A stretch of 64,000 nt of DNA from Vulcanimicrobiales bacterium (GCA_038231455.1 JBBRLI010000011.1:51922-115921); one strand, 5' to 3'. Positions 40,970-62,177 are shown, counted from the first letter of the stretch. Numbers and translations are program-made. Notes: a model not told the origin generated them from the letters alone.

Positions 40970-41005
40970 AAAAAAAATGGAGCGACGAATCGCTCCATTT
41001 TTTTT
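40970..41005. terminator. Bidirectional intrinsic terminator
   Basis: A8-TGGAGCGA-CGAA-TCGCTCCA-T8 between convergent genes. Confidence 0.9.
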
Positions 41006-42889: not shown

Positions 42890-43804
42890 CTATCGGAGGC
42901 GGATGCCGCTTTCTTCGCGGGCAATGATGCGTTCGCGCTCGAGCGCGGCGACGGTTGGTTCGAGTTCAACAAGCCGGTCGGCAGGGACGACGGCGGCGAG
43001 ATCCGCGATGAGCGCGGAGACGCTGAGCACGTCGTTCCCCGGTAGATCGCGCAGCCGGTCGATGATACGTCCGCGCAAAAAGCGCGTCGTACGCTCGAAT
43101 GGCAGCGACTCCTGCGGCGACCGGCGCGGGGCATATGCCCGCGCTCGCTCGCCTAAGGTAGCAGCATCGACCGGCGCCGCGGCACACCAGGGCGTCAGCG
43201 GACAAATCAAACACTTGGGTGCGCGCGCGGTACAGATGGTTGCGCCCAAGTCCATCATTGCCGAGTTCCAATCATGGGCAAGTCCGCTTGGAAGCTCCTG
43301 GGCAGCAAGCCCGTCCAGTTCCGCTGGCGTCGCAAGCGGTGGATATTCGAGGCCGAGGTGCGTGCGATGAATGACGCGCCGCAAATTGGTATCCATTGCA
43401 ACATCATCGCTTTCGAAAACGAACGCCCGCACGGCGGCTGCCGTATAGGGGCCAACGCCGGGTAAGGCTCGTAGCGCTTCGCGATCGCTTGGGAGAGCAC
43501 CGCGTTCACCAACGGCGACGGCGAGTGCATGGAGGCGCAGCGCGCGCGAGTTGTAGCCGAGCCCGCGCCACATGCGAACGACATCGCCGCTGGCACTTGC
43601 CGCGAGCGCTTCAAAGGTCGGGAAGCGCTCGAGAAATGCCTCGTAGAGCGGGATGACACGATCGACTTGTGTCTGCTGCAACATGAACTCGCTCACGATG
43701 ACGCGATACGGGTCGCGCGTGGAGCGCCATGGTAACTTCGCGCGCCCGAACGCCGCGTACCACGCGAGGAGCGCCGCTGTGCGCGGCGCGAGGAGCGGTG
43801 CTAT
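42890..43804 (-). CDS. mutY: A/G-specific adenine glycosylase (short MutY)
   Basis: LLAWY..LPWR..DPY..VSEFMLQQTQV, WRGLGYNSRA, LPGVGPYTA, CTARAPKCLICPLTPWC; the N-terminus requires a start upstream of 43696 (ATA at 43804). Confidence 0.9.
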   Translation of the reverse strand: MAPLLAPRTAALLAWYAAFGRAKLPWRSTRDPYRVIVSEFMLQQTQVDRVIPLYEAFLERFPTFEALAASASGDVVRMWRGLGYNSRALRLHALAVAVGERGALPSDREALRALPGVGPYTAAAVRAFVFESDDVAMDTNLRRVIHRTHLGLEYPPLATPAELDGLAAQELPSGLAHDWNSAMMDLGATICTARAPKCLICPLTPWCAAAPVDAATLGERARAYAPRRSPQESLPFERTTRFLRGRIIDRLRDLPGNDVLSVSALIADLAAVVPADRLVELEPTVAALERERIIAREESGIRLR

Positions 43805-45249
43805 GAGAGCGCCGCTCCGATGCGTTTGATGCCCTCGGCGATCAGCGATTTATCAACCGGCGTGAGCGCAAGACGAAAGTTGTGATCGCCGCCCGACGAG
43901 GCGAAGAATGCCTCACCGAAAAGAAACGACGCGCCGTTGCGTTCGCTTGCATCGAGCAATGCGCGCGCGCGAATGTCGCGCGATGCCGTTGCCCAGAGAT
44001 AGTAACCGCCGCCCGCTCGAGCCAGGCGCATGGTACTCGGCCAGTACTGATCGATCGCCGCGAACGCGATCGATCGGCGCTCCGCAAGTTCTGCGCGCAG
44101 TAACTCCACGTGCGCGTCATAGGCCGTGGTCATGTAGTCGCAGACGCTTGCCTGCACGTACATACTGGTCGCCATATCGTAGGACTGTTTGCGAAGGAGG
44201 AGGCGATCGTAAATCGTCCGCGGCGCGACGAGCCAACCGAGGCGCAGCGAGGGCGCAATCGTTTTGCTGAAGCTGCTCAAGTAGATCACGTCCTCGCCGG
44301 AACGTGCGAGGAGCGGCGGCGTCACGACCGGCGCGAGTTCGCCGTACGGATCGTCTTCGACGATCGGCACCCCTGCGCGCCGCGCGAGCGTTACCAACCG
44401 CTCGCGACGGTCGGCGTTCATCGTGACGCCGGTCGGATTGTGCAACGACGGCATCGTGTAGATGAAGCGCGGGCGGCGCGTGCGCAAGATCGCCTCGACG
44501 TGATCGACACGCAGACCGTCGTCGTCGACCGGAACGGGGATCGCGCGCAGGCCATGGATTTGAAAAATCTGCAGCGCTCCCGGATACGTCGGCGCTTCGA
44601 CGATTATTTCATCACCCGGCTCCGCCAGCGACTGCGCGACAAGCGTGATCCCTTGCGTGGAGCCGGTGAGCATCAGGACGTCGCGCGCATCCACCGCGCA
44701 GCCGCGCAGGCGCATCCGCTCCGCGATCGCTTGGCGTAATGGGGCGAATCCCTCACTGTCACCATAGGTGAGGACGAAGTTCACGTTGTTGCCAACCCGC
44801 GCGAACGATGCGGAGAGGTCGGCGAGCGGCGAGGGATCGGCCGGCGGCACGCCTTGCACGAAGGCGATCCGGTCGCCATGGCCGACCGCGGCGAGTTCGC
44901 CGAGAACCGAGGGATATTGCCCGACGCGCCAAGGTGGGAGCGTTACCCACCACGGAACGCCGGCACTGCGCTCGGGCTGACCGACGCGCAGCGGAGCGAC
45001 GCGCGAACCCGAACCGACGCGCTGTTCGATCAGGCCATCGGCGACCAGCTCGCGGTACGCATGGACCACGGTGCTCCGGTTGACATCAAGCCGGACCGCA
45101 AGGCTCCGTTCGGGCGCCAGGCGCGTGCCTTCGGGAAGGGCCCCCGTGAGGATCTGCTCGCGCAGGCGCTCGTAAATTTGCCGGTAGATCGGCACGATAC
45201 TCGCCCGGTCGATTTCGACCGTAGACTCGGCCCATCCATTTCGCGCCAT
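43801..45249 (-). CDS. MocR/GabR family regulator (GntR wHTH + PLP aminotransferase-like domain)
   Basis: PIYRQI..L..R.LA..L.VNRSTV..AY..L; HNPTG, EDDPY, SFSKTIAPSLRLGW. Confidence 0.95.
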   Translation of the reverse strand: MARNGWAESTVEIDRASIVPIYRQIYERLREQILTGALPEGTRLAPERSLAVRLDVNRSTVVHAYRELVADGLIEQRVGSGSRVAPLRVGQPERSAGVPWWVTLPPWRVGQYPSVLGELAAVGHGDRIAFVQGVPPADPSPLADLSASFARVGNNVNFVLTYGDSEGFAPLRQAIAERMRLRGCAVDARDVLMLTGSTQGITLVAQSLAEPGDEIIVEAPTYPGALQIFQIHGLRAIPVPVDDDGLRVDHVEAILRTRRPRFIYTMPSLHNPTGVTMNADRRERLVTLARRAGVPIVEDDPYGELAPVVTPPLLARSGEDVIYLSSFSKTIAPSLRLGWLVAPRTIYDRLLLRKQSYDMATSMYVQASVCDYMTTAYDAHVELLRAELAERRSIAFAAIDQYWPSTMRLARAGGGYYLWATASRDIRARALLDASERNGASFLFGEAFFASSGGDHNFRLALTPVDKSLIAEGIKRIGAALS

Positions 45250-45340
45250 CGCTCACCCATTTCCGATTAGGAGCCACCCATTCCCGCGCTCCCGCGCGAG
45301 TATCTGCAGAATTGGATGGGCGAGAGTTCCAGTTGGACGG
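45232..45340. promoter_or_regulatory. Five 9-bp repeats phased at 21 bp, putative MocR operator
   Basis: CCATCCATT 45232, TCACCCATT 45253, CCACCCATT 45274; inverted ATTGGATGG 45311 and GTTGGACGG 45332. Confidence 0.65.
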
Positions 45341-45431
45341 CGGAGTGCTAACCGGGCACTGCTACACTACTTCGACCCCTCGCGTTTGCCTCCGCAAGGC
45401 ACTACGCAGATCTCGGGAGTTGTTTTCGCAT

Positions 45432-48122
45432 ATGATCGATACGCCGAACCTCGTCGCAAGCGTCCCCGCCGCCGCGCCGCAAGCCGATCCGCAAGAGACG
45501 CAAGAATGGATCGAGGCGCTCGACGGCATTATCGCCGCCGAAGGCAAGGATCGGGCGCGCGACATCATCGCTGCGCTCGCCCAGCGCGCCCGCACGCGCG
45601 GCGTCGAGATTCCGATCGCGCTGACGACTCCGTACGTGAACACGATTCCCGTGCGCGATCAAGCAGCGTTTCCCGGCGATGCGGCAATCGAAGAACGTCT
45701 TCGCCACTACCTTCGCTGGAACGCGATGGCGATGGTCGTTCGCGCGAATAAAGAGTCCAGCGAACTCGGCGGACACGTTGCGACGTTCAGCTCGGCGGCC
45801 ACGCTCGTTGACGTCGGCTTCAATCATTTTTGGCACGCCCCGTCGGCGACGCACGGCGGCGATCTCGTCTACTTCCAAGGCCACTCGGCTCCCGGCGTGT
45901 ACTCGCGTGCGTTCATGGAAGGCCGCATCAGCGAAGAGCAGCTCAATCATTTTCGCCGCGAAGTCGACGGCAAAGGCATCTCGTCCTATCCGCACTCGTG
46001 GCTGATGCCCGAGTTCTGGCAGTTCGCGACGGTCTCGATGGGCCTCGGCCCGCTTCAAGCCGTGTATCAAGCGCGCTACATGAAGTATCTGCACGATCGC
46101 GGGATCGCCGATACGAGCGGCCGCAAAGTCTGGTGTTTCCTCGGCGACGGTGAAGTCGATGAGCCCGAGTCGCTGGCGGGTCTCGCGCTTGCCGCGCGTG
46201 AGAAACTCGATAACTTGATCTTCATCGTCAACTGCAACTTGCAACGCCTCGACGGTCCGGTTCGTGGCAACGGCAAGATCATCCAAGAACTCGAAGGCGA
46301 GTTCCGCGGCGCGGGTTGGAACGTGCTCAAGGTCATCTGGGGCCGGCGCTGGGATGCGCTGCTCGAGAAAGATACGAGCGGCATGCTGGCACGTGTCATG
46401 GGTGAGGCGCTCGACGGCGACTATCAAACGTTCAAATCGCGCGACGGCGCGTACGTGCGCGAACATTTCTTTGGCCGCTATCCCGAGACGCGCAAACTCG
46501 TCGAGGATATGACGGACGAAGACATTTGGGGCCTCAATCGCGGCGGGCACGATCCGTACAAAGTCTACGCAGCATATAAAGCAGCGGCGACGCATGTCGG
46601 CCAGCCGACGGTGATCCTTGCGAAAACGATCAAAGGCTACGGCATGGGTTCGGCCGGCGAAGGCATGAACGTCGCGCACCAGCAGAAGAAAATGATCGTC
46701 GAACAACTGCGTTCGTTCCGCGATCGATTCTCGATCCCGGTCTCCGACACGGATTTGGAATCGGTGCCGTTCATCAAACCGCAAGCCGGTAGCGCGGAGG
46801 AGAAGTATCTGAAAGAACGCGTCGCCGAACTCGGCAGCGTTCCCTCACGCAGGCGTAACGTCGAAGCCCCGCTTGCGATCCCGCAAGTCTCGGCCTTTGG
46901 CGCCCTGCTCGAAGATTCGGGCGAGCGCGAAAACTCGACCACGATGGCGTTCGTACGCGCACTCGGCGTGCTCGTCAAAGATAAGACGCTCGGGCCGCGC
47001 ATCGTTCCGATCGTTGCCGATGAGTCGCGCACGTTCGGCATGGAAGGCATGTTCCGTCAGCTCGGCATCTACTCTCCGGCCGGACAACTCTACCGTCCGC
47101 AAGATGCCGATCAGCTGATGTGGTACCGCGAAGATACGAGCGGCCAGATTCTGCAAGAAGGCATCAACGAGGCAGGCGCCATGTCGTCGTGGATTTCGGC
47201 GGCAACGTCGTACTCGACGCACGGCGTGCAGACGATCCCCTTCTTCATCTTCTACTCGATGTTCGGGTTCCAGCGCATCGGCGATCTCGCATGGGCAGCA
47301 GGCGACATGCGCTCGCGCGGCTTCTTGCTCGGCGCGACCGCGGGACGCACGACGCTCAATGGCGAGGGTCTGCAGCACGAAGACGGCCACAGCCATCTCT
47401 TTGCCGCGAACATCCCAAATTGCGTGCCGTACGATCCAACCTTCGCCTACGAAGTCGCCGTCATCACGCAAGACGGCTTGCGGCGCATGGTCGCCGAGCA
47501 AGAAGATGTGTACTTTTACATCACGCTCATGAACGAGAATTATCATCATCCCGCAATGCCCAAAGGCGCGGAAAAAGATATTCTCAAGGGGCTCTATCTC
47601 TTACGCGACGGCGGCAAAGCCAAAGGCCCGCGCGTGCAGTTGATGGGCTCGGGCACGATTCTGCGCGAAGTAATGGCGGCCGCAGACTTGTTGCGCGAGG
47701 ACTTCGGCGTTACCGCTGATATCTGGAGCGCGACGAGTTTCACGCTTCTGCTTCGCGACGGAAACGATACCGCGCGCTACAACATGTTGCACCCAACCGA
47801 CAAACCGCGAAAGTCATTTGTGGCGCAGTCTCTTGCCGGACACGACGGTCCCGTGATCGCGGCAAGCGATTATGTCAAAGCATTTGCCAACGGCATTCAG
47901 CCCTTCGTCCACCGCCGCTTCCACGCGCTGGGGACCGACGGCTACGGTCGCAGCGACACGCGCGCGCAATTGCGCTCGCACTTTGAGGTCGATCGCCACT
48001 GGGTCGCGTTGAGTGCCCTGCACGCGCTCGTCGAAGAAGGCACGCTCAAACCGAGCGTTGTCGCCGAGGCGATTGCGAAATACGGCATCGATGCAAACAA
48101 ACCGAATCCCGTGACGGCGTAA
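45432..48122 (+). CDS. aceE: Pyruvate dehydrogenase E1, homodimeric type
   Basis: DPQETQEW, RWNAMAMV, TVSMGLGP, GDGEVDEPE TPP motif, NCNLQRLDGPV, EGLQHEDGHS. Confidence 0.97.
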   Translation: MIDTPNLVASVPAAAPQADPQETQEWIEALDGIIAAEGKDRARDIIAALAQRARTRGVEIPIALTTPYVNTIPVRDQAAFPGDAAIEERLRHYLRWNAMAMVVRANKESSELGGHVATFSSAATLVDVGFNHFWHAPSATHGGDLVYFQGHSAPGVYSRAFMEGRISEEQLNHFRREVDGKGISSYPHSWLMPEFWQFATVSMGLGPLQAVYQARYMKYLHDRGIADTSGRKVWCFLGDGEVDEPESLAGLALAAREKLDNLIFIVNCNLQRLDGPVRGNGKIIQELEGEFRGAGWNVLKVIWGRRWDALLEKDTSGMLARVMGEALDGDYQTFKSRDGAYVREHFFGRYPETRKLVEDMTDEDIWGLNRGGHDPYKVYAAYKAAATHVGQPTVILAKTIKGYGMGSAGEGMNVAHQQKKMIVEQLRSFRDRFSIPVSDTDLESVPFIKPQAGSAEEKYLKERVAELGSVPSRRRNVEAPLAIPQVSAFGALLEDSGERENSTTMAFVRALGVLVKDKTLGPRIVPIVADESRTFGMEGMFRQLGIYSPAGQLYRPQDADQLMWYREDTSGQILQEGINEAGAMSSWISAATSYSTHGVQTIPFFIFYSMFGFQRIGDLAWAAGDMRSRGFLLGATAGRTTLNGEGLQHEDGHSHLFAANIPNCVPYDPTFAYEVAVITQDGLRRMVAEQEDVYFYITLMNENYHHPAMPKGAEKDILKGLYLLRDGGKAKGPRVQLMGSGTILREVMAAADLLREDFGVTADIWSATSFTLLLRDGNDTARYNMLHPTDKPRKSFVAQSLAGHDGPVIAASDYVKAFANGIQPFVHRRFHALGTDGYGRSDTRAQLRSHFEVDRHWVALSALHALVEEGTLKPSVVAEAIAKYGIDANKPNPVTA

Positions 48123-48124
48123 TA

Positions 48125-49762
48125 ATGGCACACACGATCGATATCTCCGTCCCGGATCTGGGTGAGTATCACGACATCCCCGTCATCTCGATCCTCGTGA
48201 AACCCGGCGACACGATCAAAAAAGACGCACCGCTCGTCGAACTCGAATCCGAAAAAGCGACGATGGAAGTGCCCTCGTCTGCTGCTGGTGTCATCCGTTC
48301 GATCAATGTGAAGCTCGGCGATAAAGTCTCAAAAGGCTCGGTGCTCGCAAGCCTCGAGATCGAAGACGCCGCCGTCCCGGTGGCAACCGTTGTAGCACCG
48401 GCACCAGCCCCCGCTCCGGCAGCAGCGGCCAGCGCGGCCGCACCGGCACCGGCCGCTCCGCAAGCGAGCGCCGTCATCGAAATCGCCGTCCCCGACATCG
48501 GTGAATATCACGACATCCCCGTGATCTCCGTGCTCGTCGCGTCGGGCGATACCATCGCGAAAGACGCGCCGCTCGTCGAACTCGAATCGGAAAAAGCGAC
48601 GATGGAAGTCCCCTCGTCCTCAGCCGGAGTCGTGCGCGACGTCAAAGTGAAAATTGGCGATAAAGTATCGCGCGGTTCGGTGATCGTCACACTCGAAACG
48701 AGCGCGCCCGCCGTGCAAGCGTCGGCGGCGCCGGCAACACCGACCGCTCCCGCGCAACCCGCGCACGAGACCACCGTCCTTGCCAACGTCGCGAATGTTT
48801 CGCCATCATCGTACGGCGCATCCGGAACGAACGGATCGAGCAACGGCATTGCACCTCTGCCCACCCATGCGAGCCCGGCAATTCGTCGCTTCGCACGCGA
48901 ACTCGGCGTTGAACTCGCACACCTGCGCGGCACCGGACCAAACGGTCGCATCACGCGCGATGACGTGCAGAATTTCGTCAAGAACGCACTCGCGAATCCG
49001 ACCGTGGCTCCGGCCGTTGCTTCCAACGCTTCCGGACTGAACCTCCTCCCCTGGCCGAATGTCGACTTTGCAAAATTCGGACCGATCGAACGCAAGCCGC
49101 TTACGCGCATCCAAAAGATCTCCGGGCCGAATCTCGCGCGCAATTGGGTGATGATCCCACACGTCACCCAGCATGAAGATGCCGACGTCACCGAACTCGA
49201 AGAATTCCGTAAGTCGATCAACGCGGAGCAAAAAGATGTTAAGGTCACGATGCTCGCGCTCATGATCAAAGCATCCGTTTCGGCGCTGAAGAAATTCCCG
49301 CTGTTCAATACCTCGCTCGACGGCGCGGAACTCGTGTTCAAGCAATATTACAATATCGGCTTCGCCGCAGACACGCCGAACGGTCTCCTCGTTCCCGTGA
49401 TTAAAGGCGCCGACAAGAAAGGCGTTCTTGAGATCGCACGCGAGACGGGCGAACTTGCCGGCAAAGCGCGCGACGGAAAGCTGGGGCCAGCCGACATGAG
49501 CGGTGCGACATTTACCATTTCGTCACTCGGCGGAATCGGCGGGACGTATTTCACGCCGATCATCAACGCGCCGGAAGTAGCGATCCTCGGCGCTTGCCGC
49601 ACCGCCGTTAAACCGGTGTGGGACGGCAAAGCGTTCGCGCCGCGAACGATCCTACCGCTCTCGCTCTCTTACGATCACCGGGTCATTGACGGGGCAAGCG
49701 CCGCGCGCTTCGCGGCGTATCTTGCGGGCGTGCTTGCCGACATGCGCCGGACGATGCTCTAA
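48125..49762 (+). CDS. aceF: Dihydrolipoamide acetyltransferase E2 with two lipoyl domains
   Basis: Two ESEKATMEVP lipoyl domains (near-duplicate DNA), HASPAIRRFAREL, SYDHRVIDG. Confidence 0.96.
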   Translation: MAHTIDISVPDLGEYHDIPVISILVKPGDTIKKDAPLVELESEKATMEVPSSAAGVIRSINVKLGDKVSKGSVLASLEIEDAAVPVATVVAPAPAPAPAAAASAAAPAPAAPQASAVIEIAVPDIGEYHDIPVISVLVASGDTIAKDAPLVELESEKATMEVPSSSAGVVRDVKVKIGDKVSRGSVIVTLETSAPAVQASAAPATPTAPAQPAHETTVLANVANVSPSSYGASGTNGSSNGIAPLPTHASPAIRRFARELGVELAHLRGTGPNGRITRDDVQNFVKNALANPTVAPAVASNASGLNLLPWPNVDFAKFGPIERKPLTRIQKISGPNLARNWVMIPHVTQHEDADVTELEEFRKSINAEQKDVKVTMLALMIKASVSALKKFPLFNTSLDGAELVFKQYYNIGFAADTPNGLLVPVIKGADKKGVLEIARETGELAGKARDGKLGPADMSGATFTISSLGGIGGTYFTPIINAPEVAILGACRTAVKPVWDGKAFAPRTILPLSLSYDHRVIDGASAARFAAYLAGVLADMRRTML

Positions 49763-49766
49763 AGCG

Positions 49767-50687
49767 GTGCGCGTGCGAGAGACCTTCGCCGCGTTGCTCG
49801 TCTTGGCGATAGTCGCACTGGCGCCCGTCGCCGCCGGCGCAAAAACGACAATCCTCTTCGTCGGCAACAGCTTTACCCACGGCGAGTATCTCCCGGTGCG
49901 CGAGTATAACCGCGCGCACGTGACGGACGAAAACGCACGCGTCCCGCTCGGCGAAGCGCGCCACGAGCCCGTCGCGGGACCATGGAGCGGTATCCCGGGC
50001 ATTTTTGCCCGCTTCGCTGCGGAAATGGGCTTGTCGTACGATGTCCACTCGGAAACGATCAGCGGACAGACGCTCGACTTCCAGATCGACGTCGCGCTGC
50101 CCGTGATCGCTCAAGCAAAATGGGACATCGTTGTCTTACAAGAGTACAGCACGTTTCCCGTAGCGGATGCGCACGGCGGACATCGTACGGATTTTCAGCG
50201 AGCTGCCGATAAGCTTGAAGAGTCGATTCACGCAAAAAATCCCGCCGCGAACATCTTCCTTTACGAAACGTTTCCACGCGCCGACCTAACGTATCTTCCG
50301 CAGCGTTCGTTTTCTGACGAACCGATCGATACGATGGCAGACGAACTGCGCGCCGGCTATCGGATGGTATTCCAACACAACGGCCATTTCGCGGGCCTAG
50401 CGCCGGTCGGCGATGCGTGGATGCGTGCGATTCACAGCGGAGTCGCCGAAGCGAACCCCTATGTGCCGGAATTCGGCAAGCTCGATCTCTGGAACGTCGA
50501 TGCCTATCATCCAAGTAACGCGGGAGCGTACCTCACCGCCTGCGTCCTCTTCGAACGCATTACCGGTGTCGACGCACGACGGCTCGGACCGAGCGAACGC
50601 GCCGCTTCCGACCTAGGGATCGCGGCGAGCGCCGCCGCGCTGCAGCGGATCGCTCACGAACAGATCGTCGATTCCGACGCACGCTGA
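49767..50687 (+). CDS. Secreted SGNH-like hydrolase (DUF4886-like)
   Basis: Signal peptide; ILFVGNSFT, WDIVVLQE, APVGDAW, DAYHPS..G.YL. Confidence 0.75.
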   Translation: MRVRETFAALLVLAIVALAPVAAGAKTTILFVGNSFTHGEYLPVREYNRAHVTDENARVPLGEARHEPVAGPWSGIPGIFARFAAEMGLSYDVHSETISGQTLDFQIDVALPVIAQAKWDIVVLQEYSTFPVADAHGGHRTDFQRAADKLEESIHAKNPAANIFLYETFPRADLTYLPQRSFSDEPIDTMADELRAGYRMVFQHNGHFAGLAPVGDAWMRAIHSGVAEANPYVPEFGKLDLWNVDAYHPSNAGAYLTACVLFERITGVDARRLGPSERAASDLGIAASAAALQRIAHEQIVDSDAR

Positions 50688-50808
50688 CTTCCAGCGCGTT
50701 CCTGGCAACATCCTTAGGGCCGATTCGATGCAGAGCCGATTAGCGGGAAACGGCCGCATTGCAAGACGAAAACCGAATCTCTTGACTTCGTCTTAAGAAA
50801 GCTCGTGC

Positions 50809-53800
50809 ATGCGTCGCTTGTTCTTTGCGCTCTCTCTCGCTGCGCTCTTTGCCGTTCCGTTTGCGAACGCAGGCGCCCAGGAGGCTGAAGAATCGACCGC
50901 CGCGTCCCCCGCGCCGACTGCGACGCCCACGCCTCCTTTCAATCGCCTGGGTTGGCGCGAGGTCGGACCGGCCGTGGCCGGCGGCAGGCTCACCTCAGTC
51001 GTCGGTTCGGCAACGGATCCATTGCTGTATTTTATCGGCGCGGCCGGCGCCGGTGTTTGGAAAACAAGCAACGGCGGCGCGACGTGGACGCCAATGTTCG
51101 ATAAGCAGAGCGTGAGCTCGATCGGCGCCGTCGCACTCGATCCGAAAAACAACGATGTCGTGTGGGCCGGGACGGGCGAGACCAACCCGCGCAACGACGT
51201 GACGTACGGCGACGGTATCTACAAGTCGGTCGACGGCGGCAAAACGTGGAAGCATATGGGCCTGCGCGAGACGATGCAGATCAGCTCGATTGCGATCGAC
51301 CCGCGCAACACCGATACCGTGATCGTCGGCGCGATGGGCGATTTTTTCGGCGATAGCGAGTCGCGCGGCATCTACCGCACGACCGACGGCGGAAAGACGT
51401 GGGCGAAGACGCTCTACGTCGGACCGCAGAGCGGCGTGAGCGACCTTGCCGTCAATCCCGCGAACCCCGATGAGATGTACGCGGGCATCTGGCAGTTCCA
51501 GCGCGTGCCGTGGACGTTCAAGAGCGGCGGTCCCGACGACGGACTCTATAAGTCGATCGACGGCGGACTCACGTGGAAGAAGCTCACCGGCAACGGACTG
51601 CCCGCGGGTATCACCGGTCGAATCGGCCTTGCCATCGCGCCGAGCAATCCCAAACGCGTGTACGCGACGATCGAATCCAAAGACGGTATTCTTTGGCGCA
51701 GTGACGATGCGGGCGCTACGTGGACGATGATCTCGGATGATACGCTGATCAACCAGCGCCCGTTTTACTTCAGTCATCTTGCCGTCGACACGAAAAATCC
51801 CGATCACGTCTTCGGCGTCTCAAACGAGCTTGCCGAATCAAAAGACGGCGGCAAGCATTTCAAGATTACGGCCGATAGCGTGCACGTCGATTATCACAGC
51901 ATGTGGATCGCACCGAACGATCCCAAGCGGATGATTACGGGCGAAGACGGCGGGTATGGGCTTACGGTCGATGGCGGAAAAAACTGGACATTCTCGCGCA
52001 ACCTTGCGATCGGCCAGGTCTATCACGTCGGCTATAGCGATGAGACGCCGTATCGCGTCTGCGCGCCGCTGCAAGATAACAACGGCTTCTGCGGTCCCTC
52101 GGACTCGCTCAATCCGCAAGGCATCTCCGATGATACGTGGGATCGCGTCGTCGGCGGTGATGGAATGTGGGCCGTTCCCGACCCCCGCGATGCCAATTTG
52201 GTTTGGACGGATCTGCAAGACGGACGGCTCTCGATCTTCGATCGCAAAACCCGCCGCAATACCTCGATCCAGCCGTTCTACGGCAATGCCGCGGACGAAT
52301 TCAACTTTGACACGGCAAAATATCGCTTCAATTGGGATTCGCCGATTGCATTTGCGCCGTGGGACACGCACATCGGCTGGTTCGGCGGCAACGTCGTCTT
52401 CCAAACGATCGACAAAGGCGCGCACTGGACGGTGATCTCGCCGGACCTGACGCGCAACAATAAGGAACACCAAAAACCCTCGGGCGGACCGCTTGCTCTC
52501 GACGTTTCGGGCGCCGAATTCTCCGATACGATTCTCGACATCGAAGGCTCGACCAAACACGTGGGAGAGATTTGGGTCGGAACGGACGACGGCGTCATAC
52601 AAGTGACGCTCGACGGCGGCAAACACTGGAAAAATGTGACGCCTCCCGGCGTTCCCGAATACGGACGCGTCGAAATCGTGGCGCCATCACCGCTCGTCGA
52701 CGGAACGGCGTACGCCGTGATCGACCGCCACATGTCAGGCGATCGCACGACCTATGCCTTCGTCACGCACGATCACGGCGCAACCTGGACGTCGATCTCG
52801 GCCGGCCTTCCGGTCGGTCAAGAGGCGCGTTCGATCCGGCCCGATACGAAGAACCCGCACATGGTGTATCTGGGGCTCGAAAATTCACTCTGGGCTTCGT
52901 ACGACGACGGCGCGCACTGGCAGTCGTTTAACTTCAACCTGCCGCAGGTCGCCGTGTACGACATTCGCGTCCAACCTCGCTTCAACGACCTCTTGATCGC
53001 TACGCACGGCCGCGCGCTGTGGATCTTCGACGATCTCACACCCGTGCAGATGCTTCCGCAGGCCAAAGCTGCGGGCACAATGCTCTTTCCAATCCGCGAT
53101 TCGTATCAATATGGACTACACGCCGATGACGAAGGTCTCTATACGCGCTTTGCCGGCAAAAATCCGCAGCGCGGAAGCGTCATTGCGTTCTATCAAATGA
53201 CGCCGGGCGCGCAAGCTCCCGAGATCGAGATTCTCGATGCACAGCGCAACCACGTGCGCTGGATTCGCGGAACCAATCGCGTCAACGAAAAAGAAGTGCC
53301 GGTCGTGACCAACCTTGCGGGCGTCAACCGCATCGCGTGGGATTACCGTGAAGACGGTCCCGTCCGTTGGGAAGGCGCACCCAAAGACGAATACAAGGGC
53401 CCGCGCACCGGCGTCGGCCGCAACCCCGGTTCGTATGTCGCGCGCATCACGCTCGCTGGAAAATCGTTCGAGCAACCCTTCACGGTGAAAGCCGACCCGC
53501 GCGTTTCGACGACGGCAGCGGAATACGCCGCAAGCTACGCCTTTGCAAAGAAACACATGGATGAGTTCTCCGCAATCGACGTCGCACTCAATCGCATCGA
53601 CGCCGTCATCAAGTCGTCGAAGACGCCCGATACCCTCACGCAAGCGCACGCGTTGCGCGATCGGCTCACGGCGGACTTCCACAATGGGGAAGACTCGCTC
53701 CAACGCCCGGGTCGTCTGCGCGAAGACATGCAGGGTCTCATCGGCGGGCGCGGAGGCAGTTCGGCTCCGAACGCCGCGCAGCGCGAGGCCGCCGCGCGTA

Positions 53801-53877
53801 TCGATTCGGAATACGCCTCGGTCATGCGCGACGTCACGGCGTTTCTCGCCGGCAACCTCGCGATGGAACCCAAGTAA
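50809..53877 (+). CDS. Secreted VPS10/BNR-repeat beta-propeller protein (glycosyl hydrolase-like)
   Basis: Signal peptide; WREVGP..GGR; many SxDGGxTW Asp-boxes; ATHGR. Confidence 0.87.
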   Translation: MRRLFFALSLAALFAVPFANAGAQEAEESTAASPAPTATPTPPFNRLGWREVGPAVAGGRLTSVVGSATDPLLYFIGAAGAGVWKTSNGGATWTPMFDKQSVSSIGAVALDPKNNDVVWAGTGETNPRNDVTYGDGIYKSVDGGKTWKHMGLRETMQISSIAIDPRNTDTVIVGAMGDFFGDSESRGIYRTTDGGKTWAKTLYVGPQSGVSDLAVNPANPDEMYAGIWQFQRVPWTFKSGGPDDGLYKSIDGGLTWKKLTGNGLPAGITGRIGLAIAPSNPKRVYATIESKDGILWRSDDAGATWTMISDDTLINQRPFYFSHLAVDTKNPDHVFGVSNELAESKDGGKHFKITADSVHVDYHSMWIAPNDPKRMITGEDGGYGLTVDGGKNWTFSRNLAIGQVYHVGYSDETPYRVCAPLQDNNGFCGPSDSLNPQGISDDTWDRVVGGDGMWAVPDPRDANLVWTDLQDGRLSIFDRKTRRNTSIQPFYGNAADEFNFDTAKYRFNWDSPIAFAPWDTHIGWFGGNVVFQTIDKGAHWTVISPDLTRNNKEHQKPSGGPLALDVSGAEFSDTILDIEGSTKHVGEIWVGTDDGVIQVTLDGGKHWKNVTPPGVPEYGRVEIVAPSPLVDGTAYAVIDRHMSGDRTTYAFVTHDHGATWTSISAGLPVGQEARSIRPDTKNPHMVYLGLENSLWASYDDGAHWQSFNFNLPQVAVYDIRVQPRFNDLLIATHGRALWIFDDLTPVQMLPQAKAAGTMLFPIRDSYQYGLHADDEGLYTRFAGKNPQRGSVIAFYQMTPGAQAPEIEILDAQRNHVRWIRGTNRVNEKEVPVVTNLAGVNRIAWDYREDGPVRWEGAPKDEYKGPRTGVGRNPGSYVARITLAGKSFEQPFTVKADPRVSTTAAEYAASYAFAKKHMDEFSAIDVALNRIDAVIKSSKTPDTLTQAHALRDRLTADFHNGEDSLQRPGRLREDMQGLIGGRGGSSAPNAAQREAAARIDSEYASVMRDVTAFLAGNLAMEPK

Positions 53878-53878
53878 C

Positions 53879-56122
53879 ATGCCGCTGCCGCTCGCCGCAG
53901 CGGTCGCGTGCTGCGCTCTCGTCGGTCACGTGCACGATGGCGACGGTCGTGCGCTCGGTGGCGCGCACGTGCACGCGGCCGCAAGCGTTGCGACCGACGC
54001 GACGACCGATGCGAGAGGCGAGTTTCGCATGACGCTTACCGGCGGGCGCTACCGGGTGACGATCGACGCGCCGGGATTTCAATCGCTCACCCTCGACTCG
54101 CTCGAAGTGCACGGTACCGATACGATCGATGCGGCACTCGAATCGCTTGCGAGCAATCGCGTGCGAACGATCGGACGCATCACGGTCGACGGTCGTCTCG
54201 CCGTACCGCGTGCCACGATTCCCTCGCGTGAAATTACGCGGTCTGATTTGGATTCGCTTGGATTCGATCGCGCGATCGACGCACTAGGCGCGGTGTCTTC
54301 ACTAACGGCGGCGCATCCGAATGGCGGCGGACGCGGCGGACCCGCGGTCGTGGCCTTACGTGGTCCGGATCCCTCGGAGACACGCATCACGCTCGACGGC
54401 CAGACGATCAATAATGCGAATACGGGAGATCTCGATATCGGTCAGTTACCGACGAGCGTCCTATCCGGAATCGATATCAGTGAGGGCCTCGGACCAAGCG
54501 ACAAAGGCGGCGCAAATACCATCGGCGGCGAGATCAATTTTCTGACGCTGCGGCCGACGGCAACGCCGCGGCGTCTCGCGCGCTTCTCCATTGGATCGTT
54601 CGGATCGACGGCAAGCGAACTCGAGGCGACCGGCCGTTACGAGAAACTCGGGTATGCCCTTGAAATCGGACGTTCGGGACAAACGGGCTTCGTGCACAAC
54701 TTTCCCGCCACAATCAACGGCACGCCCGTGAAGCTCGGCTCGGCGATCACCGCGTCGTCGGCGCTTGCGAACCTCACCTACGATCTCTCGCTCGCCACGA
54801 GCGTGCGCGTTCGCGCGATCACGCTCGATGACGTGCGCGATACGAGCGCCGCGCTTACCGCCCCGATCGATCCGAGCAACGACCGGCCCGGCGGGGCCTT
54901 CAGCGGCACCGGGACGCAGATACGTTCGCAGAGCCTGCGCGCGCTACTCTCCGGCATATCGACCCGTGTTGGCAGCGGAACGCTGAACGCAACGTATGCG
55001 ACGTCCTCGGTGAGCGTTGCTCTCGATGCGATCGGCACCGGACCGTACGACGTTTCCAACGTCGATCGCATCGGCACCGCCTCGCTGGATTGGACCCACT
55101 CGTCCGGCGGATTCGATCTCTCGCTTGGTGGTTACGTGCGGGGCGAGAGTCTGGATTCGCCCGATCAATTCACTTCGCGTTTGAGCGAACGCAGCTACGC
55201 CTACACGCTGCGCGCGTCGAGCGACATCTCAACCCGTTTGCGTTTGAGCGCAAGCGTCATCGACTCGCGATATTCGACATTCGGCTCGAGCCTCGATGGT
55301 CGAATCGGAGCGCGCTACGCCACGGGCGGTGGCGGTGCACTGCGCGCGTCCATTGGTACCGGTTTCCGCGCGCCGCTCCTCGCGGAGCGGTTCACCTTAC
55401 CGCTCGACCAACTGCCGCCCGACGCGAACTGCGTGGGCGTCAACGGCAATCCCGGCTTGCACCCGGAGCACGCAACAGAATACGAGGTCGGCTACGGTCG
55501 GCCGTTTGGATCGAACACAACCGTCGATGCGACCTACTACCGGACGACGCTGCGCGATCCGATCGAAATCTTCTATCCGCTCGGCACGACCTGTACGAGC
55601 GGACCGGCCACGACGGTCGCGCAGAGTTTTCCGGTCAATGTCGGCAATGTGATCTACCGCGGCGGCGCGATTTCGCTAGCGCACCGCTTCGGCGCGCTTT
55701 TCGCACGGGCCGAGTACGGTGTGAACAACGCCTTTCCGACGCAACTGCCCGGGTATGTGAACAATCCAACCTCGGGGACGAATCTCATCGTGGGTCAACA
55801 GTTCGCCGGCATTCCGTTGCAGACGGTCTCGCTCAATCTTCGGTACGCTAAGGCCGCTACACACGCCGCAGCCGATGTGAGCCTCAAGAGTACCAACAAC
55901 GAACTCAATCAAGGACGCTATGCAATCGTGAACGCCGCGGTCGGCAAAACGTTTGGCGCGTTTGACTTCACGCTCTCCGGCCGCAATCTCACGAACGCCG
56001 CGAGCGGACGATTCACGCGCCTGGGACTTGGCGCTCCGTATCCAACGCCTGGCGGCAACGTCGCAACCGACGCGTTCGTCATCGAACCCGCCTCGATTCG
56101 TTTCACCATCTCGATTCGTTAG
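53879..56122 (+). CDS. TonB-dependent receptor with N-terminal carboxypeptidase-regulatory-like domain
   Basis: TDARGEF domain, plug LRG..LDGQ..GGEINF, GFRAP, NPGLHPE, NLTN. Confidence 0.85.
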   Translation: MPLPLAAAVACCALVGHVHDGDGRALGGAHVHAAASVATDATTDARGEFRMTLTGGRYRVTIDAPGFQSLTLDSLEVHGTDTIDAALESLASNRVRTIGRITVDGRLAVPRATIPSREITRSDLDSLGFDRAIDALGAVSSLTAAHPNGGGRGGPAVVALRGPDPSETRITLDGQTINNANTGDLDIGQLPTSVLSGIDISEGLGPSDKGGANTIGGEINFLTLRPTATPRRLARFSIGSFGSTASELEATGRYEKLGYALEIGRSGQTGFVHNFPATINGTPVKLGSAITASSALANLTYDLSLATSVRVRAITLDDVRDTSAALTAPIDPSNDRPGGAFSGTGTQIRSQSLRALLSGISTRVGSGTLNATYATSSVSVALDAIGTGPYDVSNVDRIGTASLDWTHSSGGFDLSLGGYVRGESLDSPDQFTSRLSERSYAYTLRASSDISTRLRLSASVIDSRYSTFGSSLDGRIGARYATGGGGALRASIGTGFRAPLLAERFTLPLDQLPPDANCVGVNGNPGLHPEHATEYEVGYGRPFGSNTTVDATYYRTTLRDPIEIFYPLGTTCTSGPATTVAQSFPVNVGNVIYRGGAISLAHRFGALFARAEYGVNNAFPTQLPGYVNNPTSGTNLIVGQQFAGIPLQTVSLNLRYAKAATHAAADVSLKSTNNELNQGRYAIVNAAVGKTFGAFDFTLSGRNLTNAASGRFTRLGLGAPYPTPGGNVATDAFVIEPASIRFTISIR

Positions 56123-56129
56123 GAGACCT

Positions 56130-59057: not shown

Positions 59058-59127
59058 CGGCTCTTTCTCTACTCGTAGGAACGGACGGTCGCGCCGCATT
59101 GGAGCGCGACGAAAGGAAGTCTATCTA

Positions 59128-60579
59128 GTGGCAAATCATAGCGTCGACGCGGTCGTCATCGGCGCGGGTCCCGGCGGATATCACGCTGCGATCCGCCTCG
59201 GGCAGCTCGGCAAAACCGTCGTCTGCTTCGACCGCGACGAGGTCGGGGGCGTCTGCCTCAACTGGGGCTGTATCCCGACCAAAGCGCTCTTGCACGTTGG
59301 TGAGGTCACCCGGCACATCAACCACGCCGAAGAAATCGGGATCACCGTCCCGCAGGCGATCATCAATCGCGAAGGCGTGGTCGCCTTCAAAGACAAGGTT
59401 GTCAAAGCCAACGTCGGCGGTGTCTCGCAGCTCTTCAAAGCAAACAACGTGCAGTTCGCCTACGGCGATGCGTCGTTTACGGGCAAGAATACGGTCACGC
59501 TCAAGAAGCGCGAAGGCGGCGAAGATACCTACGAATTCAAAGACGCCGTGATCGCGACGGGCTCCGCGCCGATCGATGTGAAAGCCTGGCCGCGCGACAG
59601 CGATACGATCATCAATTCCGATGATGCCGTACAGATGAAACGCATCCCGAAGAATTTGCTCGTCGTCGGCGGCGGCGTGATCGGTCTTGAGTTTGCGACC
59701 GTGTTCGGCCGCATGGGCGCAAAAGTGCTCGTCGTCGAGGCCCTCGGTCAGCTCCTTACCGGCACCGATGCTGAGATTTCGAAGACGTTGCAGCGTATCC
59801 TCAAGAAACAAGGCGTTGAGTTCGCGCTGAACACCAAAGTGGAAACGGTCGAGAAGACCGGACCGCAGACGGTTAAAGTCACGATCAACGGCGAGTATAC
59901 GAATAACAAACCGGAAACGCGTGAGTACGATACCGTGCTCGTTTCAGTCGGTCGGAAACCCATCACCGATACGCTCAATCTCGCTGCGGTCGGTCTGGCA
60001 ACGAACGACAAAGGCTTCATCGACGTCGATGCGCAGCGCCGCACGAACGTCGCCGGAATCTGGGCGATCGGCGATGTGACGGGCGCGCCGATGCTCGCAC
60101 ATAAAGCAATGAAAGAAGGCGTCGTCGCCGCTGAAGCGATCTCGGGCGATAAGTCCGCGGCCTTCGATCCGGTTGCGATCCCGAACTGCGTCTACACCGA
60201 TCCCGAAGTCGCGACGATCGGTCTCTCGGAAGAAGAGGCCAAAGCCGCCGGTTACGAGATCAAAGTCGGCAAGTTCCCGCTAATCGCATCGGGTCGCGCA
60301 CGCACGATGAACGAGACCGACGGTCTCATCAAACTCGTCGGCGACGCCAAGACCGATTTATTGCTCGGGATGCATATCATCGCACCGCAAGCCGAATCGC
60401 TCATCGGCGAAGGCGTGATCGCACTCGAAATGGGCGCGACGATCGAAGACATCGGTCTCTCGATCCATCCGCATCCAACGCTCACGGAATCCATCGGCGA
60501 CGCGGCGGAATTCATGCACGACAAAGCCATCCACATCATCAACGCTAAGAAAGTGGCGAAGCAGCCCGCGGCTGTCTAA
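59128..60579 (+). CDS. lpdA: Dihydrolipoyl dehydrogenase E3
   Basis: GAGPGG, GGVCLNWGCIPTK, GGGVIGLE, HPHPTLTE. Confidence 0.97.
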   Translation: MANHSVDAVVIGAGPGGYHAAIRLGQLGKTVVCFDRDEVGGVCLNWGCIPTKALLHVGEVTRHINHAEEIGITVPQAIINREGVVAFKDKVVKANVGGVSQLFKANNVQFAYGDASFTGKNTVTLKKREGGEDTYEFKDAVIATGSAPIDVKAWPRDSDTIINSDDAVQMKRIPKNLLVVGGGVIGLEFATVFGRMGAKVLVVEALGQLLTGTDAEISKTLQRILKKQGVEFALNTKVETVEKTGPQTVKVTINGEYTNNKPETREYDTVLVSVGRKPITDTLNLAAVGLATNDKGFIDVDAQRRTNVAGIWAIGDVTGAPMLAHKAMKEGVVAAEAISGDKSAAFDPVAIPNCVYTDPEVATIGLSEEEAKAAGYEIKVGKFPLIASGRARTMNETDGLIKLVGDAKTDLLLGMHIIAPQAESLIGEGVIALEMGATIEDIGLSIHPHPTLTESIGDAAEFMHDKAIHIINAKKVAKQPAAV

Positions 60580-60585
60580 CCCACG

Positions 60586-61293
60586 ATGGACGACGGTCGC
60601 GAGGTCCGGCTGCTCGATCTCGGGCGCCGCGGCTATCGCGACGTCTGGGCGCTGCAGCGCGAATTACACGCGGCAGTTGCGGAAGACCGCGAACGTGAGA
60701 CGTGGATCGTTGTCGAACACGATCCCGTCATCACGCTCGGGCGCAAAGCAAACGAGAGCAACCTGTTGCTCTCGCGCGCGATGCTCGAAGCGCGCGGCGT
60801 TGATGTCCTCGCGGTCGAACGTGGCGGCGATGTTACCTACCACGGACCGGGACAAGTCGTCGTCTATCCGATTCGTAAACTCGAGCGCTTTCGCGAAGTC
60901 GTACCGCTCGTCTCGCAGTTAGAACGTGCCGTCATCGCGGCACTCGCGGAGTTCGGCATCGAGGCACGCGGCCGCAAAGAGCACCGCGGGGTCTACATCG
61001 GCGAGAACGCGATTTGCGCCGTGGGCCTCGCGATCCAGCGGATGACATCCCTTCACGGCATCGCGCTTAACGTCGCAACGGCGCTCGACTACGATCGCCT
61101 TATCACGCCGTGCGGGACGCCGGAATTTGGAATCACCTCGGTCTCCCACGAACTCGGCCGCGCCGTGGACTTTGGCCAGGGACGCGACGTGCTCTTAGGC
61201 GCAATCGAACGCGATTTCGGAATCCACTTCATCCGCGTCGAAAAGGACGCAACCCCGGCGCCTTCTTCGGCGTCGCTACGAGTAGGATCATGA
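60586..61293 (+). CDS. lipB: Lipoyl(octanoyl) transferase
   Basis: EHDPVITLG, RGGDVTYHGPGQ, HGIALNV, ITPCG. Confidence 0.93.
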   Translation: MDDGREVRLLDLGRRGYRDVWALQRELHAAVAEDRERETWIVVEHDPVITLGRKANESNLLLSRAMLEARGVDVLAVERGGDVTYHGPGQVVVYPIRKLERFREVVPLVSQLERAVIAALAEFGIEARGRKEHRGVYIGENAICAVGLAIQRMTSLHGIALNVATALDYDRLITPCGTPEFGITSVSHELGRAVDFGQGRDVLLGAIERDFGIHFIRVEKDATPAPSSASLRVGS

Positions 61294-62162
61294 TCGAACA
61301 AACAAAGCCCCATACGCCGAAGCCCCCGTGGCTCAAGGTGCAATTACCGCATGGCGAGAGCTATGAGGGCGTGCGCGCGGAGGTCAAACGCCTCCAGCTC
61401 AACACCGTCTGCCAAGAAGCGATGTGCCCGAACATCGCCGAGTGCTGGGGTGCGGGCACGGCAACGATCATGATCTTGGGCGACACGTGCACGCGCGGTT
61501 GCCACTTTTGTGCGGTCAAGACGGGCAGCCCCAAAGGCGAAGTCGACTGGCTCGAACCCAAGCGCGTCTCCGAAGCCGTAGCCGAGATGGGCTGGAAATA
61601 TCTGGTCCTCACGGCGGTCGATCGTGACGATCTGCCCGACGGCGGCGCGACGATTTTTGCCAACACCGTGCGCATGATTCACAAAAAAGTGCCGGATGCA
61701 AAAGTGGAATGTCTCACGGGCGATTTCGCGGGCGACCTCAAGGCGCTCGAAATCGTGCTCGAAGCGCAGCCCGAAGTGCTCGCGCATAATCTTGAGACCG
61801 TACGCCGTTTGCAGCGCTCGGTCCGCGATTTGCGCGCGAACTTCGATCAGTCGCTCTCCATTCTCGCGCACGCGAAGAAGAGCGGCCTGGTGAAGTTCAC
61901 CAAAACCTCACTGATGCTCGGCCTCGGCGAAACCGACGACGAGATCGAAGCGACCATGGATGAGGCGCGCTCGGTCGGCGTCGACATCTTCACGATGGGC
62001 CAATATCTCCAACCCTCGAAAAAGCATCTCGACGTCGTCGAATTCGTAACGCCCGAGAAGTTCGAAGCGCTGCGGAAACTCGGAATGAGTAAAGGCTTCC
62101 GCCAGGTCGTTTCGAGCCCGCTCTCGCGCAGCTCGTACCACGCCGAACAAGTCTTCCACTAG
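61290..62162 (+). CDS. lipA: Lipoyl synthase
   Basis: CQEAMCPNIAEC, CTRGCHFC, RSSYHA; ATGA overlap with lipB. Confidence 0.97.
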   Translation: MIEQTKPHTPKPPWLKVQLPHGESYEGVRAEVKRLQLNTVCQEAMCPNIAECWGAGTATIMILGDTCTRGCHFCAVKTGSPKGEVDWLEPKRVSEAVAEMGWKYLVLTAVDRDDLPDGGATIFANTVRMIHKKVPDAKVECLTGDFAGDLKALEIVLEAQPEVLAHNLETVRRLQRSVRDLRANFDQSLSILAHAKKSGLVKFTKTSLMLGLGETDDEIEATMDEARSVGVDIFTMGQYLQPSKKHLDVVEFVTPEKFEALRKLGMSKGFRQVVSSPLSRSSYHAEQVFH

Positions 62163-62177
62163 CAGTACGCGAAGCAA

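Follow-up and report, generated by a model that had tools for sequence, protein, structure and literature searches.

The 64-kb stretch of DNA analysed here (the window) comes from a metagenome-assembled genome of the Eremiobacterota (Vulcanimicrobiota), which comprises 3,710,853 bases in 106 contigs, is 93.7% complete and is designated G000 below. The window encodes a regulator of the MocR/GabR type (mocR) that is divergent from aceE and aceF, the genes of the E1 and E2 components of the pyruvate dehydrogenase (PDH) complex, and an array of short repeats (boxes 1 to 5, Table 1) extends from the 5' end of mocR into the region between mocR and aceE (45250-45431). Gene calls agree with an initial annotation of the window that had placed the repeats between these two divergent genes and had described the first copy as overlapping the 5' end of mocR. 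Comparative genomics makes it probable that control of the PDH complex and, in relatives of this organism, of the glyoxylate shunt lies with a MocR-family factor that also regulates its own gene.

The pattern YCAYCCATT has exactly three matches on the two strands of the window (CCATCCATT, TCACCCATT and CCACCCATT, at boxes 1, 2 and 3, respectively). Three or more scattered matches were present in 10 of 100 shuffled sequences, so that their number alone is not unusual, but the paired pattern YCAYCCATT-N12-YCAYCCATT, with two matches in the window, had no match in any of the 100 shuffles. A search of the entire G000 genome, of the kind that the initial annotation had proposed, found the paired pattern at this locus only (reversed-pattern control, 0 matches). 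Independent repeat finding returned direct pairs with a 21-bp period at 45230-45242/45251-45263 (85%) and 45254-45265/45275-45286 (92%), as well as inverted 13-nucleotide arms at 45230-45242/45309-45321 (92% complementary). The three direct copies spaced by 21 bp that had been noticed earlier are thus recovered by both methods. The two inverted copies noticed with them have the positions and the 21-bp spacing assigned to them, but as copies of the motif they are looser than was implied: the reverse complement of box 4 (CCATCCAAT) has one mismatch to YCAYCCATT, and that of box 5 (CCGTCCAAC) has three. A search of Rfam with 44900-45700, accepting E-values up to 1, gave no match, and therefore no known leader RNA accounts for the region.

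Table 1. Genes, repeat boxes and promoter element at the mocR-aceE locus and downstream, in window coordinates.
Feature	Position	Strand	Description
mocR	43801..45249	-	MocR/GabR-type regulator, 482 amino acids; ATG at 45249
box 1	45232..45240	-	minus-strand AATGGATGG; in mocR codons 4-6 (N-G-W); matrix score 18.3-18.6
box 2	45253..45261	-	minus-strand AATGGGTGA; 21 bp from box 1, immediately upstream of the mocR ATG; matrix score 11.8-12.4
box 3	45274..45282	-	minus-strand AATGGGTGG; 21 bp from box 2; matrix score 12.2-13.4
box 4	45311..45319	+	ATTGGATGG; inverted relative to boxes 1-3; highest-scoring box, 19.4-20.3
box 5	45332..45340	+	GTTGGACGG; degenerate, 21 bp past box 4; ends 22 bp before the -10 hexamer
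putative aceE -10 hexamer	45363..45368	+	TACACT, preceded by TGC; read by eye
aceE	45432..48122	+	pyruvate dehydrogenase E1, homodimeric type, 896 amino acids; Pfam PDH_E1_M
aceF	48125..49762	+	dihydrolipoyllysine acetyltransferase E2, 545 amino acids; Pfam 2-oxoacid_dh, Biotin_lipoyl (two), E3_binding
four genes between aceF and lpd	49686-59057	+	no evident PDH link
lpd	59128..60579	+	dihydrolipoyl dehydrogenase E3; TIGR01350, 536 bits (cut-off 408.8); 11 kb downstream
lipB	60586..61293	+	octanoyltransferase; Pfam LplA-B_cat, E 7.5e-38; tblastn
lipA	61290..62162	+	lipoyl synthase; Pfam Radical_SAM and LIAS_N; start inferred from ATGA overlap with the lipB stop

On its domain content, the product of mocR is a protein of MocR/GabR architecture, in which a GntR-type winged helix-turn-helix (wHTH) domain at the N-terminus (Pfam PF00392, E-value 2.5e-16, residues 22-84, full profile length) is joined by a linker (approximately residues 85-125) to a C-terminal sensor domain resembling the fold-type-I aminotransferases (Pfam PF00155, Aminotran_1_2, E-value 1e-28, residues 161-406), with the lysine that binds pyridoxal phosphate (PLP) kept. 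This lysine, K329 in the sequence SFSK, aligns with the Schiff-base lysine of the TFSK motif in the aminotransferases 1x0m and 3aov. Aminotransferases of the Protein Data Bank align with residues 126-479 at an E-value of 1e-61, and GabR aligns full length, over residues 10-417, at 2.2e-21. The motifs FSK (K329), HNPt, EDDPYG and fRLa are kept in at least 80-98% of 56 MocR orthologues, across which the wHTH block LPE.tRL.PER..A..L.vNRST.VhaYR is also kept. The retained lysine and the carboxylate-binding arginine suggest an alpha-amino acid, or else PLP, as the putative effector at K329; alanine had been given as an example in the initial annotation. The product of aceE scores 1466.7 bits against NCBIfam TIGR00759 (cut-off 859.9) and 1289.9 bits against the 2-oxoglutarate exception model AKGDH_not_PDH (below the cut-off of 1408.3), and is therefore of the homodimeric PDH type rather than the 2-oxoglutarate type; the product of aceF scores 681.3 bits against TIGR01348 (cut-off 552.1).

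Of 24 relatives sampled from the same family, 19 have a mocR orthologue (68-96% identity), as do 61 of the 81 family genomes overall. None turned up in five genomes of the sister family within the order; a further family sampled from the class gave matches in only four of 11 genomes, at approximately 33% identity and covering just the aminotransferase domain. More distant full-length homologues, from Anaerolineae and Clostridia, share 36-40% identity, and neither lpd nor aceE lies within 4 kb of them. Among the first 20 orthologue loci, aceE adjoins mocR only in G000 and a congener (G001); in the others lpd is the divergent gene, with lipB, lipA and a pump of the AcrB type behind it. The divergent partner in 41 further public loci is lpd(-lipB-lipA) in 26, aceE-aceF in eight and an intervening AAA/TPR gene in four, whereas three have none visible or are too short; Pfam searches of three loci confirm the assignments of divergent partners. 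Adjacency of mocR and aceE is therefore not unique to this genome, a possibility that the initial annotation had raised together with loss of the original target: it is found in 12 loci (G000, G001, the eight public loci, G060 and G075), and elsewhere the partner is lpd-lipB-lipA, which encodes the E3 component and the lipoylation enzymes of the same complex.

With either set of neighbours, lpd-lipBA or aceE-aceF, the regulator stands beside genes of the lipoyl-dependent PDH complex. The ancestral divergent partner of mocR is lpd-lipB-lipA and the aceE arrangement is derived. In most relatives lpd directly faces mocR; in G000 it lies 11 kb away on the same strand as aceE. A quick tree of MocR proteins (SH-aLRT support only) requires at least three changes to account for aceE adjacency, and thus mocR came, or returned, to a position beside PDH genes more than once. 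Some genera have one or two AAA_16/TPR (STAND-like) genes between mocR and lpd (L038:9826-11955, L039:7801-12173, L096, L102, L109 and L118), and at these loci there is no box immediately upstream of lpd.

Boxes of the consensus rAAwTGGAysG, mostly phased at 21 bp, occur upstream of mocR in the relatives and also upstream of aceE where it is unlinked to mocR, which answers the question of motif conservation left by the initial annotation. By a first weight matrix, at least two sites were found upstream of mocR in 30 of 38 orthologue loci versus none of 380 control windows; of 15 same-orientation pairs, 11 had a spacing of 20-23 bp, which in seven was exactly 21 bp. The usual layout in other genera (CCATCCAAT, N12, CCGTCCATT, approximately N6, ATTGGATGG) consists of two direct boxes 21 bp apart and one inverted box. 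A second matrix, trained on the mocR-upstream regions of 18 relatives alone, with G000 and G001 excluded, as a guard against circularity, identified at least one site upstream of aceE in 15 of 18 mocR-bearing genomes versus none of six mocR-lacking genomes. The counts include unpublished genomes, one mocR-bearing (G009) and three mocR-lacking (G020, G022 and G036), without which the result is 15 of 17 versus none of four. Of 2000 random G000 windows, the same matrix assigned a single site to 60 and more than one site to none.

Exclusion of G000 and G001 leaves only genomes in which aceE is not beside mocR, and boxes precede aceE in 13 of these 16 mocR-bearing genomes. An unbiased k-mer count of aceE-upstream regions ranks ATTGGA first (13/16 mocR-bearing versus 0/6 mocR-lacking genomes, background 0.036). 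Examples at unlinked aceE genes are ATTGGATCGGTCCATTAGCAAGGGAATGGATGG in G012 and three boxes phased at exactly 21 bp in G014. Upstream of the isocitrate lyase gene aceA, the second matrix found sites in nine of 12 mocR-bearing versus none of nine mocR-lacking genomes (9/12 versus 0/7 when the unpublished genomes are left out), and no sites were found by matrix upstream of lpd in mocR-lacking genomes. When five nearly complete genomes were searched blind for phased direct pairs, 10 matches were obtained versus none in the control; these were at mocR/lpd and at aceE, and included four-box arrays before the isocitrate lyase genes of G010 and G007 (isocitrate lyase Pfam family, E-value 2.3e-102). 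Among 20 further unclassified pattern matches in other genera, 12 were at mocR, lpd, aceE or aceA. Because the same protein and the same box occur with lpd-lipB-lipA, unlinked aceE and isocitrate lyase, the predicted regulon is that of the pyruvate/acetyl-CoA node: the PDH complex, its lipoylation and the glyoxylate shunt. Isocitrate lyase is thus a predicted member of the regulon in relatives, which goes beyond anything in the initial annotation.

Several observations of individual relatives bear on these boxes and their targets. Phased TTGGATGG pairs are located between nuoA (Oxidored_q4) and a divergent CarboxypepD_reg gene in two genera (L234:2026-2060 of G050; L235, approximately 2080-2110, of G061), and nuoA, of complex I, may be a further member of the regulon in some genera. 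Upstream of lpd in the unpublished genome G020 (L159), which has no mocR orthologue, there is an apparent remnant of the mocR 5' end (CCAATTTTCGCCA) together with a conserved CTACTTTGG, but no box is intact there, as if regulator and operator had both been lost recently. In G010, extended tandem repetition of a unit of approximately 20 bp (CTCGCTGGATCGCGTCAAT; L188, contig C1, approximately 2539700-2540050) gave a false match to the pattern. An inverted-pair pattern, WTGGAY-N2-8-RTCCAW, was dropped as noisy (51 sites versus 17 in the control, five genomes); among its listed matches, the mocR start of G010 was the only known target.

The start of aceE is likely to be the ATG at 45432 rather than the TTG at 45312, and the start ATGATCGA is conserved in the aligned loci. 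Aligned with one another, 10 aceE-type loci of several genera show no variation in ATTGGA..G of box 4, TGG of box 5, a TAnnnT hexamer and all of the spacings between them, whereas the spacers vary in sequence. The hexamer, TACACT in G000, occurs as TACACT, TACAAT, TAGAAT or TATGAT, with T, A and the final T invariant across the 10 loci, and no recognisable -35 element was seen by eye at the aceE promoter. Upstream of lpd in relatives (for example L009, L011, L013, L014 and L020), CCTACTTTGG is conserved approximately 10 bp past the inverted box; CACTACTTCG of G000, at 45366-45375, overlaps the putative aceE -10 hexamer, which suggests that aceE of G000 uses the former lpd promoter. The arrays at aceA in relatives are situated downstream of elements that, by eye, resemble TTGACA-N17-TATAnn.

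In the proposed mechanism, the five boxes would be the operator of the divergently encoded MocR, which very probably is the protein that binds them. By analogy with known members of the family, MocR would be a dimer whose two DNA-reading heads would contact paired boxes on the same helix face, because 21 bp corresponds to two helical turns. Judging from their position, over the start codon of mocR and the preceding 30 bp, boxes 1 to 3 may bring about autorepression. Boxes 4 and 5, at a fixed distance upstream of the aceE -10 hexamer (approximately -64 to -35), would control transcription of aceE-aceF, and it is likely that aceEF is controlled through the boxes. If TACACT is the -10 hexamer, boxes 4 and 5 would be centred near -60 and -39, and in combination with the missing -35 this would be the geometry of an activator-dependent promoter; GabR at gabT has a comparable geometry. 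Since there is no -35 and the geometry between boxes and -10 is invariant, GabR-like activation at aceE is slightly favoured, with about an even chance of being correct, and promoter occlusion is equally possible. Repression is favoured at aceA, at a similarly balanced level of confidence, because the boxes there are downstream of the promoter-like elements. The central proposal of the initial annotation, that a MocR-type regulator controls the PDH operon, therefore gains support from synteny and from motif conservation, binding of the regulator being predicted.

The boxes might instead serve only to autoregulate mocR, aceE being a passive neighbour and the true target, lpd-lipBA, having been displaced by insertion. 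Such an explanation would fit the ancestral partnership with lpd-lipBA, the closeness of boxes 1 to 3 to the mocR start, and the interposition of aceE, aceF and four unrelated genes between operator and lpd in G000, but it is very unlikely in view of the boxes at unlinked aceE genes, which follow the presence of mocR (13/16 versus 0/6 genomes), the invariant distance from boxes 4 and 5 to the aceE -10 in 10 loci, and the recurrence of adjacency in 12 loci with at least three changes on the tree. Alternatively, the boxes could be genuine operators of another transcription factor to which mocR is merely adjacent, as their occurrence at genes distant from mocR would allow. This too is quite improbable: boxes are found at the 5' end of mocR in 30 of 38 orthologue loci, they are gone from the upstream regions of aceE, aceA and lpd in genomes that lack mocR, and, as multiple direct and inverted boxes built on a TGG core and spaced by helical turns, they have the signature published for MocR (main text of PMC5320631).

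A third alternative concerns the ligand only, namely that the protein is a PdxR-type regulator of vitamin B6, so that the boxes report the supply of PLP and the link to PDH is secondary. PLP is the effector of PdxR, and PdxR is indeed the best NCBIfam model for the G000 protein, at 293.9 bits, near the cut-off of 320. The score is nevertheless below that cut-off, as are those against YczR (273.2, cut-off 487.4), MocR (220.9, cut-off 650), EhuR (208.5, cut-off 480), PtsJ (131.8, cut-off 573) and GabR (102.3, cut-off 600), and hence the protein reaches none of these six named equivalogs. Furthermore, pdxS of G000 has no upstream box and is not near mocR, all of the recurrent targets found are genes of PDH, lipoate or the glyoxylate shunt, and a second full-length MocR paralogue present in G000 could be PdxR, which together make a PdxR identity highly improbable; PLP may still be the effector. 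Finally, chance or non-functional local duplication as the source of the repeats, for which only the frequency of three or more scattered 9-mer matches in shuffles (10/100) speaks, can be dismissed, since phased pairs occur in no shuffle and nowhere else in the genome, and the boxes are kept across genera at approximately 70% protein identity while the spacers differ.

Against control of the PDH complex by MocR through these boxes, a number of points have to be set. Box 5 scores less than 8 bits with the matrix and is under the threshold. A sigma-70 scan of 45100-45500 called no promoter, and scans at three aceA loci called 0, 0 and 1; the promoter elements of both aceE and aceA were read by eye and break the rule of the scan for the last base of the -10. 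In G000, no box reaches 10 bits in the 200 bp before the lpd start, none lies within the 70-bp gap that precedes the gene, and the lpd boxes have been lost in both G000 and G001. Sites are absent upstream of aceE in three mocR-bearing genomes (G005, G007 and the unpublished G009), and one mocR-aceE-aceF locus (L076:3776-4001) has no box of at least 8 bits; GTTCC/GGAAC repeats are present there in place of boxes, and the binding specificity may have changed. Homodimeric-type aceE was not found at E-values of 1e-40 or below in G006 and G015, which possess mocR and lpd, and so aceE is not a universal target; G006 has boxes at lpd and aceA, and both genomes may use another pyruvate-oxidising enzyme.

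Other points of the same tendency concern the comparisons themselves. The first matrix, from which the G000 cluster scan and the mocR-upstream and lpd counts derive, was trained partly on aceE-upstream regions. Three loci of the public orthologue set duplicate genomes that were already numbered, and the relatives compared are related genomes rather than independent ones. Most of the genomes without mocR are small (1.9-2.3 Mb), and they may form a single clade with one loss, so that the counts of 0/6 and 0/9 do not represent independent losses. Strict counts of direct pairs separate the two groups weakly, with 94 matches in 61 mocR-bearing genomes versus 20 in 20 mocR-lacking genomes; six of the latter 20 come from one coding tandem repeat.

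Within G000, a scan with the first matrix ranked the mocR/aceE intergenic region as the top cluster (four sites, 63.8 bits) of 13, the next scoring 37.4 bits. The second and third clusters, at C19:24044 (no clear genes) and C8:74675 (within a coding region), were dropped. The surroundings of the latter (C8:73112-75461) encode a product starting MGVSKNSTVAVYGKGGAGKSF that, from its translation, resembles an ATPase of the NifH/BchL type, followed by large partner genes, possibly as a cluster for a (bacterio)chlorophyll or nitrogenase-like reductase. There are no boxes upstream of the other two E2 loci, gcvH, pdxS or nuoA (C15, near 58500), and no isocitrate lyase was found in G000 by tblastn or genome search; the regulon visible in G000 would thus consist of mocR and aceE-aceF. 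At 40974-41001 of the window (C11:92895-92922 of G000), a near-perfect palindrome, AAAATGGAGCGA..TCGCTCCATTTT, came up in the box search as a weak pair; a relation to the boxes is improbable, and it is perhaps the site of another factor or a hairpin. The interval between aceF and lpd encodes, in order, a GDSL/DUF4886 protein, a BNR/sortilin protein (1022 amino acids), a protein like TonB-dependent receptors (CarboxypepD_reg and Plug) and a second BNR/sortilin protein (approximately 1034 amino acids). Terminator-like matches in 43500-62600 number 21, in line with the 20.2 in shuffled sequences.

The predicted system resembles three characterized regulators in different respects. GabR of Bacillus subtilis, a member of the MocR subfamily (4n0b, 4mgr), likewise combines a GntR wHTH with a PLP-binding aminotransferase-like domain, is encoded divergently from its target operon and has repeat boxes on one face of the helix. 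It differs in being distant in sequence, the G000 protein being closer to true aminotransferases (E-value 1e-61 versus 2.2e-21) and far short of the GabR model (102.3 of 600 bits), in having two boxes rather than five at a 21-bp phase, and in serving catabolism of gamma-aminobutyric acid (GABA) instead of the PDH complex, lipoylation and the glyoxylate shunt. GabR represses its own gene and activates its neighbour in an effector-dependent manner, which is the model favoured here. The operator of PdxR combines direct and inverted boxes, as does the present one. PdxR, the regulator of pyridoxine biosynthesis (7pq9 and DNA complexes), is also the nearest named model, but the mocR gene of G000 is not beside pdxST.

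The operator of PdhR is a single palindrome, in contrast to the multiple phased boxes found here. In E. coli, PdhR is described as a pyruvate-sensing GntR repressor of the FadR subfamily that acts on pdhR-aceEF-lpd (PMC10572922, PMC3265435). Both PdhR and the MocR of G000 are GntR-superfamily factors encoded beside aceE that act, in the latter case by prediction, on the PDH complex and on themselves. Unlike pdhR, which is co-transcribed with its targets, mocR is divergent. A Pfam search of the MocR protein detected no FCD effector domain, which PdhR possesses, and found Aminotran_1_2 in its place; MocR is therefore not a member of the PdhR/FadR subfamily but a functional analogue of PdhR, and its ligand need not be pyruvate.

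The MocR regulons reconstructed by Suvorova and Rodionov in 2016 (PMC5320631) were deduced from the same type of evidence, a divergent partner and conserved repeated boxes. According to the main text of that study, MocR operators most commonly have a pair of direct boxes with a single inverted box ('-> -> <-'), '<- <- -> ->' also occurs, and boxes are spaced by whole helix turns, usually with a TGG/TGT core. The operator described here, with direct and inverted boxes at whole-turn spacing, a TGG core and a location at its own promoter, fits the family description of two to four or more such boxes. The regulon classes published there are PLP, GABA, taurine and ectoine metabolism, PLP enzymes, redox enzymes and transporters; the main text does not mention pyruvate dehydrogenase, lipoamide, lipoate, aceE or lpd, and the supplementary tables may differ (PMC5320631). 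Judged by titles and abstracts, no MocR regulon over pyruvate dehydrogenase was found in the literature searched, and the matches listed for MocR together with isocitrate lyase were mostly fungal or incidental.

The MocR orthologues of this family thus appear to form a new orthologous group within a known regulator family, and their regulon appears to be new as well. If a PLP-dependent factor acts at aceEF, lpd-lipBA and isocitrate lyase, amino-acid or vitamin B6 status would be tied to the entry of carbon into the tricarboxylic acid cycle. A bolder proposal, doubtful at present, is that the MocR orthologue is a master switch of the pyruvate/acetyl-CoA node in Eremiobacterota that operates by aminotransferase-like PLP chemistry and not just by docking of a ligand; chemistry-based sensing is possible because the sensor domain is far closer to working aminotransferases than to GabR. 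Such a switch would turn the genes for PDH and lipoylation one way and the glyoxylate shunt the other, perhaps with complex I in some genera, would sense the balance of amino acids and 2-oxo acids (alanine/pyruvate or glycine/glyoxylate), and would be the first PLP-dependent transcription factor over central carbon flux. The Eremiobacterota are, to our knowledge, a widespread phylum of soil and peat with almost no cultured members, for which the regulon and operator described here, if correct, would be the first to be reconstructed.

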